A stretch of 62,143 nt of DNA, counting the filler, from Vezdaea acicularis (lineage: Eukaryota), in assembly GCA_026025075.1 (NCBI GenBank). It is 4 parts of 4 records of this genome, joined end to end, with 100 filler letters (N's around TTAATTAATTAA, not from the genome) between each part and the next. Parts side by side here need not be neighbours in the genome. Positions count along the whole stretch, not along the records: positions 15,740 to 31,269 come from JAPEUI010000221.1; 3 more parts are not named here. One strand, given 5' to 3'. Positions 15,640 to 18,155 of this stretch are shown here, piece by piece. The notes under the pieces were generated by a model, which worked only from the letters and a program-made list of their open reading frames with translations, did not search any database and was not told the origin of the DNA. A program made the translations under genes and the position numbers. Every line of letters starts with the position of its first letter. Position 1 is the stretch's first letter.

Positions 15640-15739
15640 NNNNNNNNNNNNNNNNNNNNNNNNNNNNNNNNNNNNNNNNNNNNTTAATTAATTAANNNNN
15701 NNNNNNNNNNNNNNNNNNNNNNNNNNNNNNNNNNNNNNN
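15640..15739. other. Artificial assembly spacer 44N-TTAATTAATTAA-44N
   Basis: Identical 100-bp spacer occurs three times; the 12-mer has stops in all six frames. Confidence 0.97.
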
Positions 15740-16008
15740 AACTTGGAGACGCAGCGGTCAAGGCATACCGATTCGCCTTTGTTCAAGTCCCCTTCTCGAT
15801 AATCATTTGGTATACATTTTTTGGTGCAGGATTGTGTTAATCTACATGCCAGTCAGTACCTAATAGCACTGCCATTGGTAAGCTCAGTCCAAGGGCGGAG
15901 TTCATACCGAGCGAACATATCGGAAACCATCTCAATCTCTGTTTCAGCGCTAGCAATCTTCTCAGCGCTAGAAAGCTTTGGCCGACCACCTCCGAAGAGA
16001 AAAGACAT
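15740..16008 (-). CDS. TIM10: Mitochondrial small Tim chaperone Tim10, 3' end lost in the gap (absent from ORF track)
   Basis: Spliced translation [67 protein letters not shown] with twin CX3C motif. Confidence 0.93.
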
Positions 16009-16265
16009 TATAGCTCGTCGCAAGCTTTTGTATTTGTAGAGAAATGAGTTGATCTAGTTGAAGTTGTGAACCGTTTGTAGGACTTTCTTGACTTGCCGCG
16101 GGTTATGTGGTGACCCTCGCTTGAACTTCAACTCGGAGACGCGCAGTCACGTGGGATCGCTCAGATCCCAGGGGATCTTTCACTAGCTTCCGCGTTGCTC
16201 ACTGACTCTTTACAATCAACTTCCTGGAGGTAAGTCAAGCTTCTGTTTTCCACTTTTTTTTGAAT

Positions 16266-16346
16266 ATGATGATCCGTTTTAATGCAAAGAACCGTTGCGA
16301 ATGACACTTGTTCGCGAGTGTGTGACTGTACTAAGTTGATATCTGA
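16266..16346 (+). ncRNA. Putative intronic box C/D snoRNA in the 5'-UTR intron (16230-16411) of the mitochondrial LysRS gene
   Basis: Box C ATGATGA 16266-72; D' ATGA 16301-04; hairpin CACTTG-TTCG-CGAGTG; C'-like GTGTGA; box D CTGA 16343-46; bracketed by GTAAGT donor (16230), GCTAAC branch (16397) and AAG acceptor (16411). Confidence 0.72.
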
Positions 16347-16411
16347 CATAAATTAAATTTCCACGGTTTTGTAATTGCAGAAAGCCATGGGTATCGGCTA
16401 ACATTGATAAG

Positions 16412-18155
16412 ATGCGAGGTGTTAGGTTACTCTCTCTTCGATCCTACTTGTGGAGGAACATTCAGCAGGATGGAGGAACAATTAGTAGCCGTTACGCTCG
16501 TGCGTACTCGAGTGAACTCAATGAATCTGACAAGCATGGTCCAAATGATATTAAAGAGCGCATCGAGGAGCTCGAGCGAACCAGTTGGAACCTCTATCCC
16601 CGCCTTGAACAGTCTTTGAGGTCAAAGGCCATATCTTTCCCTGAATTTCGGCATCTGCATGCAGATCTAGCGAATGGAGAGACTCGAGCAGGAAACACAA
16701 TCACGCTGTCCGGTATGCTTTTATGGGACGAACGAAGGAAATTCAAATAGCTCATACTGTTAGGAAGGGTGAAATCGTGTCGAGTCGCTGGCTCCGGACT
16801 TGTATTTTTCAATATCAGCCACGATGGACATCAAGTCCAGGGGTTGGTGAATTTGAAGCGGATGGCAGGAAGTGTAACACCAGACCAATTTAAACAATTC
16901 TATCAGGTCCTCAGGCGTGGTGACAATTTCTGTACGTATATGCTTGGTACATGATGCATGCTGGAGCTAATTAATCCGAGCCATCACTGGGCACCCCCAT
17001 AGGACCCCACGAGGGGAGTTGTCAATTCAAGCAACGGAGATTCCGACTTTGTTGTCTCCTTGTCTCCACCGGCTCCCAAAGGGTCTGAGCGACAAGGAGG
17101 CCAGAAGACAGAACCGACACGTTGATCTCATAGTGAATGATCAGGAGGTAAAGACTATAAAAGTACGATCTCGGATTATTCAGCATCTACGGCTGTTCCT
17201 TCTCAGGCAGAATTTCCTAGAGGTAGAAACGCCTATATTAGCCAGCGTTGCCGGTGGAGCTACGGCGCGGCCGTTTACAACAAGCGCTACAGAATTCCCC
17301 GAGCGAGATCTATCTCTTAGGATTGCGCCAGAGCTTTGGCTGAAAAGGCTAGTCCTTGGCGGCCTCGACCGAGTCTTTGAGATAGGACCGGCTTTCAGGA
17401 ACGAAGGCATTGATGCGACCCATAACCCAGAGTACACGACATGCGAGTTTTATAGCTCGTACGCCACCCTCGAGGATCTCAAAGTCATGACAACTGTTCT
17501 ATTTGGCGAACTTGTCCGCGATTTGACGCAGGATATACCTGAGGCATCCGGACTACTTGGTGTTGACTTCGATAAACCATTCAATAGTATATCATTCATC
17601 CCTGCCCTAGAGCAAGCCATTGGTCGTTCCCTTCCCAACCTATCCGCCCAAGATGCAGAGGCCTCCCTCCTACAAATATTCAGTGACATGGGCCTCAAGG
17701 TCCCTACCTCTCCAAACGTGCCACGTCTCCTCGACGCCCTCTCTCATGAATACATCGAGACGAAAATCAAGGCTCCGACGTTCATCACACACCACCCCAG
17801 CTGTCTCTCGCCCCTATCGAAAAGTTTCATCGACCCAGCCTCGAACCAAGAAGTCTCCGCCCGCGCCGAGCTCTTCGCCAACGGCCGCGAGCTCGTGAAT
17901 ATGTACGAGGAAGAGAACTCGCCGTTCGAGCAACGCCGCAAGTTCTTGCAACAAGCCAAGTTCAAAGGGCCAGACAACGAATCAGTCATAGATGAGAGCT
18001 ATCTGGAAGCGTTGGAGTGGGGCTTGCCGCCTACCGCCGGTTGGGGCTGCGGTATTGATAGACTGGTCATGCTCTTCACTGGAGCGCCGAGGATAGAGGA
18101 TGTAAGGACATTCGGGAACCTACGCCATGTGGTCGCGCTTGGGAGAAAAGCGTAA
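16412..18155 (+). CDS. MSK1: Mitochondrial lysyl-tRNA synthetase (class II), 3 coding exons
   Basis: Arg/Leu/Ser-rich presequence MRGVRLLSLRSYLWR; OB-fold exons; FLEVETPIL, GGATARPF, LRIAPELWLKRL, FRNEGIDATHNPEYTTCEFY, GLPPTAGWGCGIDRL. Confidence 0.93.

Follow-up and report, generated by a model that had tools for sequence, protein, structure and literature searches.

A Candidate Intron-Encoded Box C/D snoRNA in a Lysyl-tRNA Synthetase Gene of Vezdaea acicularis with Complementarity to Adjacent Segments of LSU rRNA

Introduction

A candidate 5'-UTR intron of a lysine–tRNA ligase gene was found in Vezdaea acicularis, in a stretch of DNA of 62,143 nucleotides (hereafter, the window). It is about three times as long as the neighbouring inferred introns (~50–65 nt, judged by eye), and it contains motifs resembling the boxes of a C/D snoRNA. 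The locus raises the question of whether this intron encodes a guide RNA and, if so, which RNA is its target. An earlier note on this DNA had proposed an intronic box C/D snoRNA whose orphan guide would be aimed at tRNA, snRNA or mRNA. The first half of that proposal is sustained by the architecture of the element and by guides that lie in register, whereas the second half is not supported, since both guides match adjacent sites in LSU rRNA of other eukaryotes.

The element at ~16262–16350 is interpreted here, with a probability of about 0.75 judged from sequence features, as an intron-encoded box C/D snoRNA that would guide 2'-O-methylation of LSU rRNA. The following sections describe the host gene, the boxes, the two guides and their targets, and the relation of the element to known snoRNAs and to a structure already published from a lysyl-tRNA synthetase gene. 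The coordinates of all features are collected in Table 1.

Table 1. Features of the locus, with positions counted along the whole window.
Feature	Position	Strand	Basis or remark
Tim10/DDP-family gene, divergent	15742..16008	-	Start codon 16008; ORF 15853-16008; second exon from ~15841; remainder masked by N
Candidate 5'-UTR intron of the lysine–tRNA ligase gene, 182 nt	16230..16411	+	Read from sequence; splicing inferred from consensus signals
Intron signals	GTAAGT 16230-16235; GCTAAC 16397-16402; AG 16410-16411; then ATG 16412	+	Read from sequence
Box C, ATGATGA	16266..16272	+	Read from sequence; fits RUGAUGA consensus
D' antisense element, ACCGTTGCGA	16291..16300	+	Fifth nucleotide upstream of D' = T16296
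D'-like box, ATGA, degenerate	16301..16304	+	Directly adjoins the 10-nt complement
Internal hairpin between D' and C', CACTTG-TTCG-CGAGTG	16305..16320	+	RNAfold of 16301-16326: 7 bp, -7.5 kcal/mol
C'-like box, GTGTGA, degenerate	16320..16325	+	Read from sequence; consensus fit limited to terminal TGA
D antisense element, TGTACTAAGTTGA	16327..16339	+	Fifth nucleotide upstream of box D = G16338
Box D, CTGA	16343..16346	+	Read from sequence
First coding ORF of the host gene	16412..16750	+	ORF reading; GTATGC 5' splice site probably at 16713
Class II lysine–tRNA ligase core	Downstream ORF 17487-18152	+	Profile/PDB matches

The Host Gene and Its Leader Intron

All of the splice signals that had been listed for a 182-nt intron ending at the ATG of the lysyl-tRNA synthetase are present in the sequence. 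The intron is poor in G and C (0.368, compared with 0.521 for the window). It is also by its intron signals that the window would be placed in Pezizomycotina.

The identity of the host as a lysyl-tRNA synthetase, proposed in the earlier note, is borne out by three sets of matches that agree with one another. The ORF matches PF00152 (E 2.9e-29) and, with its C-terminal 222 residues, TIGR00499 (E 9.6e-51). The top matches in the PDB are all lysine–tRNA ligases, from E 3.2e-35, while aspartyl enzymes appear only from E 3e-7. The N-terminus of the host protein is arginine-rich, starting with MRGVRLLSLRSYLWRN..., and looks like a mitochondrial presequence. The label "mitochondrial" for this synthetase would come from that N-terminus together with the divergence of the protein from the cytosolic enzymes. 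TIM10 had been named as the divergent neighbour, and this is confirmed by the match of the segment 15742–15840 to PF02953 (E 5.2e-12). In the 3' part of this Tim10-family gene, positions 15641–15739 of the window consist of two N blocks around a literal TTAATTAATTAA, which looks masked or withheld and not natural.

The promoter region common to TIM10 and the lysyl-tRNA synthetase gene contains a CACGTG E-box at 16148–16153. It is followed by GGGATC (16153–16158), GATCCC (16164–16169) and GGGGATC (16171–16177), from which two mutually exclusive short hairpins could form. These hairpin repeats (16148–16177) explain a spurious match to the Rfam family Dicty_Class_I.

An alternative 3' splice site, TTTTGTAATTGCAG, lies within 16376–16401 of the intron (AG 16379–16380). 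The sequence CTGAC at 16343–16347, formed by box D and the next base, would fit a fungal branch-site consensus for this alternative AG, the use of which would leave a 4-codon upstream ORF (ATG 16387, TAA 16399–16401) before the main ATG. The site could serve alternative splicing, or its branch-site use could compete with the assembly of the snoRNP.

Box C/D Architecture of the Element

The 81-nt box C/D element reported earlier, with its boxes, its 28-nt spacer and its TTCG-capped stem, is present as described. The 81 nt are measured from box C to box D, fall inside the 60–120 nt typical of box C/D guides, and include the spacer of 28 nt between C and D' (16273–16300) and another of 17 nt between C' and D. 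The distance between box D and the branch point, previously estimated at ~50 nt, is 55 nt when measured from the end of box D to the branch adenine. An alternative 10-bp stem is possible between 16295–16304 and 16308–16317.

The whole element is no more stable than its shuffles (folding z -0.10). A terminal stem is absent, the 8-nt flanks giving +0.6 kcal/mol, and an external stem is absent as well: the best duplex in the wider flanks reaches -9.4, against a shuffle mean of -10.4, and 61% of the shuffles are as good. Moreover, seven RTGATGA...CTGA pairs at snoRNA-like spacing occur in the window. The other six were considered as snoRNAs and rejected, as they look like coding sequence. The boxes by themselves are not beyond chance, and the excess over chance lies in the complementarity to rRNA. 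With boxes, fold and stem all at chance level, the case for a function must rest on the guides. Among the seven pairs, the element at 16266–16346 has the longest rRNA duplex, while the others reach 8–12 pairs, with more G·U pairs or with flanks that are not rRNA.

Under one alternative there is no RNA gene at all, and an AT-rich intron, or a leader that is not spliced, happens to contain box-like motifs and complementarities together. The chance-level count of seven C...D pairs in 62 kb would fit such a reading, as would an element that comes without a terminal stem, without an Rfam match and without an orthologue in the metagenome, assembly and viral scans described below. The weight of this alternative depends on the guides, and it is taken up again once both of them have been presented.

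The D Guide and the Sarcin–Ricin Helix

The D guide was compared with LSU rRNA sequences recovered from a collection of prokaryote genomes. The scan used a 19-nt pattern in which 10 nt taken from the D guide were followed by the complement to the conserved sarcin–ricin motif, and so tested whether the D guide has its complement just 5' of the sarcin–ricin loop. The scan returned 37 contigs (L033–L069) filed under bacterial or archaeal species genomes. Nine of the contigs were compared with Rfam RF02543, and every one proved to be the 3' part of a eukaryotic LSU rRNA (E 3.4e-54 to 0). The flanks of L058, and perhaps those of L059, do not have the look of rRNA, and L034 is cut at the target site. 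Scoring was limited to ungapped duplexes in which the nucleotide five positions upstream of the box is paired. The targets covered are the 3' parts of LSU rRNA from other eukaryotes. The 37 contigs are evidently eukaryotic rDNA contamination of isolate assemblies and MAGs, and in one of them (L067) a linked 5S rRNA gene is also present.

Only partial complements, in LSU and in SSU rRNA, had been found for the D guide in the earlier note. The scan shows instead 13 uninterrupted pairs covering position 5 (12 Watson–Crick and one G·U, guide positions 4–16) with TCAACTTAGTACG in six LSU fragments (L043, L050, L053, L054, L067 and L069). The duplex extends to 14 pairs in L062 and comprises 12 pairs in nine further loci, so that 12–14 pairs are found at one and the same site in 16 of the 37 loci. 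The duplex energy is -17.8 kcal/mol. This test is partly circular, since 10 of the 13 paired nucleotides were already contained in the scan pattern. Beyond this, the scan shows that the complement is truly LSU rRNA, at the expected position, and that natural variants extend the duplex in register.

The target of the D guide is ...UCAACUUAGUACG, the 5' strand of the sarcin–ricin helix (H95). The nucleotide opposite the fifth position is the C of UU[C]AACUUAGUACGAGAGG, located 12 nt 5' of the first A in GAGA. Its identity changes together with that of the opposite base past the loop among the 37 loci (TC..GA, TG..CA, CC..GG), and the target nucleotide is therefore placed in the stem of the sarcin–ricin helix. 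The yeast-type loci (..AATTG AACTT..), which make up 18 of the 37, have a G at the target, where the duplex is interrupted exactly at position 5. The guide is apparently limited to lineages with a C at this position.

A Second Complement Next to the First

The earlier note had found no complement for the D' guide. Such a complement exists in fragment L053, 3 nt upstream of the D site: the D' element forms a perfect 10-bp Watson–Crick duplex with TCGCAACGGT (-17.4 kcal/mol), which occupies guide positions 1–10 and lies flush with the AUGA box. In this variant, the matched rRNA segment is UCGCAACGGU, and the three nucleotides separating it from the D target are AAT. The D' guide was absent from the scan pattern, and its match is thus an independent test. 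As a control, every 10-mer of the window, on both strands, was checked for a perfect complement lying at most 40 nt from the D target in at least one of the 37 loci; only 70 of the 123,632 had one (5.7e-4). For the ~19 10-mers of the spacer, the chance of such a match is ~0.01, before an adjacent xUGA or D'-like box is required.

A perfect D' match occurs at only one of the 37 rRNA loci. The loci differ in their H94 segment (CGCAAUAG, CGCGAUGG, CGCGACAG and others; also CGCAACGG), and against the commonest TTC-type variant, CCGCGATGGT (L043, L054), the D' guide forms nine pairs including two G·U, by a hand count. Given this variable segment, the D' pairing in V. acicularis is a candidate interaction. 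The possibility that the D' region is itself derived from rRNA was also considered, from a 9-nt same-sense likeness to the 3' strand of H95 (GAACCGTTG), and was rejected: the likeness arises simply because both pair with CAAC-containing strands.

Both guides bear on the alternative of an absent RNA gene. Taken jointly, canonical boxes C and D, a duplex of 12 Watson–Crick pairs plus one in register, a second perfect 10-mer that sits by a D'-like box and is aimed 3 nt away, and an intron three times as long as its neighbours are far below chance expectation, which makes this alternative improbable.

The same evidence bears on the orphan snoRNA of the earlier note, for which the rRNA matches would be fortuitous and the true target a tRNA, snRNA or mRNA. 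A better target may exist elsewhere, as the scan covered only LSU 3' parts of other eukaryotes. However, this reading leaves it to coincidence that two independent complements are in the correct register and match neighbouring LSU segments; for the second alone, the chance rate is ~0.01. The orphan reading is considered very improbable.

A closer competitor accepts the D guide and reinterprets the second complement. According to this view, the D guide alone directs methylation, of the C in H95, while 16291–16300 provides a non-catalytic pairing that stabilises the duplex, the ATGA having no function as a D' box. Conserved extra complementarities of 4–11 bp next to the methylation site, stimulating up to five-fold, are known, and in the parts of the study compared here they lie mainly between D' and C' or in an unused second guide region of the snoRNA (van Nues et al. 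2011, PMC3116282). The element has in common with snR75 and snR69 of that study a second rRNA-complementary region beside the methylation target (PMC3116282). The closeness of the second complement to the D target, from which 3 nt of rRNA separate it, and the degenerate state of the C'/D' boxes are also as expected for a single guide. However, the extra regions in the part of the set compared do not adjoin a D or D' box, with one exception, whereas the second complement of this element runs right up to an xUGA, the arrangement expected of a true guide. The second region of the element, next to a D'-like box, might direct a methylation in its own right, a situation represented in that set only by snR69 (PMC3116282). 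Furthermore, highly divergent C'/D' motifs can be active, as indicated in the same source (PMC3116282). A single guide with an auxiliary pairing is regarded as a genuine possibility, although one well short of even odds.

Proposed Mode of Action and Implications

As a guide RNA for LSU methylation, the element would act as follows. After splicing of the host pre-mRNA, debranching would open the lariat, and trimming would stop at the snoRNP that has formed on boxes C and D, leaving a mature RNA that would be expected to accumulate. The D guide (16327–16339) would pair with the 5' strand of H95, 5'-UCAACUUAGUACG-3', and fibrillarin would methylate the C at the fifth position from box D. The D' guide (16291–16300) would pair with the adjoining 5' strand of H94, 5'-UCGCAACGGU-3', three nucleotides upstream. 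This second pairing could direct another methylation, on the A of UCGC[A]ACGGU paired to T16296, which would make the element a double guide, or it could be an extra pairing that strengthens the D interaction. The H94/H95 junction suiting both guides would read 5'-UCGCAACGGUAAUUCAACUUAGUACG-3', or a variant retaining 10 or more pairs to each guide, and on this model the rRNA of V. acicularis would be expected to be of this kind. Binding of both guides to the rRNA at once is geometrically plausible, since the D guide at its 3' end and the D' duplex at its 5' end are both turned toward the C/D end of the snoRNA, and 3 nt separate the two rRNA segments. What the sequences compared contain is the set of boxes with their spacing, together with in-register complementarity to natural eukaryotic LSU rRNA; the methylations would be predictions drawn from them.

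To our knowledge, the two predicted sites have no counterpart among the methylation sites of yeast or human. From table offsets and the yeast numbering, they would lie near positions 2963 and 2973 of the N. crassa 26S rRNA.

If real, the element would bring one or two lineage-specific sites of 2'-O-methylation to the base of the sarcin–ricin helix, which is central to ribosome function. It would also be an unannotated guide RNA for the fungal snoRNA catalogues, which were seeded from few species. The snoRNA content would explain a 5'-UTR intron of about three times the usual length, and mechanistically the element would be an ordinary methylation guide. As pure speculation, modifications in the stem that presents the sarcin–ricin loop to elongation factors and fungal ribotoxins could tune the binding of the factors or the sensitivity of the fungus to its own ribotoxin.

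Relation to Known snoRNAs

The earlier note had suggested a check for a known Rfam snoRNA family, and this check returned no match. With Rfam 15, the whole window gave no matches at gathering scores. Around the element, at E up to 10, there were only two matches, both unrelated, on the minus strand and far below gathering.

The Nc CD series of N. crassa (PMC2780460) and the Afu series of A. fumigatus (PMC2377427), as presented in the main texts of these articles, resemble the element in their length of ~80 nt, canonical boxes C and D, degenerate C'/D' boxes, location of one per intron and 26S guides of 10–16 bp. The guide duplexes in Table 1 of the N. crassa study range from 10/0 to 16/0 in the "Match" column, and the lengths of the D (13) and D' (10) duplexes fall within this range (PMC2780460). 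Both also reach the 10 bp, with the fifth nucleotide paired, that is expected of a methylation guide. The main-text table of that study contains no guide for the predicted site, and of 26S entries numbered Cm28.., Cm29.., Am29.., Gm29.., Um29.. or Cm30.. it has only Am2904, Cm2906 and Cm2917 (PMC2780460). Likewise, the main-text table for A. fumigatus contains neither a guide for the predicted site nor a lysyl-tRNA synthetase host (PMC2377427). One conceivable homologue, the 80-nt orphan intronic snoRNA Afu-199, was rejected, as its host, Afu7g02320, is listed in that table as "Unknown" and not as a synthetase (PMC2377427).

The families of the fungal snoRNAome were seeded from such species lists. 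The main text of that work contains no 25S-41.., 25S-42.. or 25S-43.. target, the corresponding alignment range, and no occurrence of "sarcin" (PMC5824354). The 12-nt guide string does not occur in the published main texts, and a text search of the literature returned no report linking a mitochondrial lysyl-tRNA synthetase with a snoRNA.

In mammals, the SNORD91 family guides the methylation of 28S G4618 in H95/SRL, as stated in the part of the source compared here (PMC12288042). Both SNORD91 and the element are box C/D guides directed into the stem of the sarcin–ricin helix, but they address different nucleotides. The mammalian site presumably lies two nucleotides 3' of the predicted C. No SNORD91-like sequence similarity is detectable in the element by Rfam at E up to 10.

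A Published Structure in a Lysyl-tRNA Synthetase Gene

A conserved RNA structure has been described from a lysyl-tRNA synthetase gene of Pezizomycotina. Structure #11 of a screen based on A. fumigatus is ~60 nt long, with four significantly covarying pairs and 180 sequences in 172 Pezizomycotina genomes (Gao et al. 2021, PMC8216456, as described in the part of the article compared here). Most of its occurrences are in the first intron of a lysyl-tRNA synthetase gene and some are in the 5' UTR, and autoregulation by the synthetase has been proposed for it (PMC8216456). The location of the candidate intron at 16230–16411 agrees with this description. Structure #11 and the element are alike in the part of a lysyl-tRNA synthetase gene that they occupy, the first intron or the 5' UTR, and presumably in the broad clade, Pezizomycotina; structure #11 was not in Rfam at publication, and the element is likewise without an Rfam family. 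The difference lies in the interpretation: in the account available, structure #11 was read as an autoregulatory protein-binding site and not described as a snoRNA (PMC8216456). Compared by location and description, the two may be the same RNA, an identity that is possible but held here as doubtful. The internal hairpin of the element could supply the covarying pairs of structure #11.

This publication raises the alternative that the element is a structure bound by the synthetase, which would autoregulate its own splicing or translation, with the resemblances to boxes and guides being incidental. The published Pezizomycotina structure in a lysyl-tRNA synthetase gene fits in its location (PMC8216456), and the element does hold a hairpin of 7–10 bp. 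Nevertheless, autoregulation leaves unexplained the 13-bp and 10-bp complements to adjacent rRNA, each in the register of its D or D' box, and the fold is no more stable than shuffles. Moreover, structure #11 is compared here by its description only, and that description is silent on which of the two lysyl-tRNA synthetase genes is concerned (PMC8216456). The two readings are also not exclusive, as the published structure could simply be the internal hairpin of a snoRNA. Autoregulation with incidental guide resemblances is judged to be quite improbable.

A broader form of the snoRNA reading would combine these elements: a double-guide snoRNA, Pezizomycotina-wide and equal to structure #11, that methylates two nucleotides flanking the H94/H95 junction and is not an autoregulatory protein-binding site. 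Under this reading, the D' guide should co-vary with H94 between lineages. Such a combination appears unlikely on present evidence. If the element is the same RNA as structure #11, it is conserved across many genomes, and the published autoregulatory interpretation would need revising.

Search for Related Elements

Related elements were sought in metagenomes with the pattern TGATGA, a gap, ACTAAGTTGA, NNN and CTGA. The scan returned 32 loci and no clear orthologue, all of them chance-like with the possible exception of three identical ones (L001, L009 and L028). The pattern was found in none of the five assemblies that hold TTC-type rRNA contaminants, and in no viral contig.

The three identical loci, L001:627-698(-), L009:714-785(-) and L028:2001-2072(+), carry a 72-nt box C/D-like element in which ACTAAGTTGA-NNN-CTGA is forced by the pattern. 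Two of its features are not forced: CGTTGC in the first spacer, and a hairpin, CCACTTA-TCG-TGAGTGG. The alignment z-score is only ~2.2, and the flanks are low-complexity eukaryotic DNA in which no lysyl-tRNA synthetase is visible. The hairpin resembles the CACTTG-TTCG-CGAGTG of the window and differs from it by one compensatory pair (G–C to A–U). The 72-nt element may be a distant homologue, or the resemblance may be due to chance.
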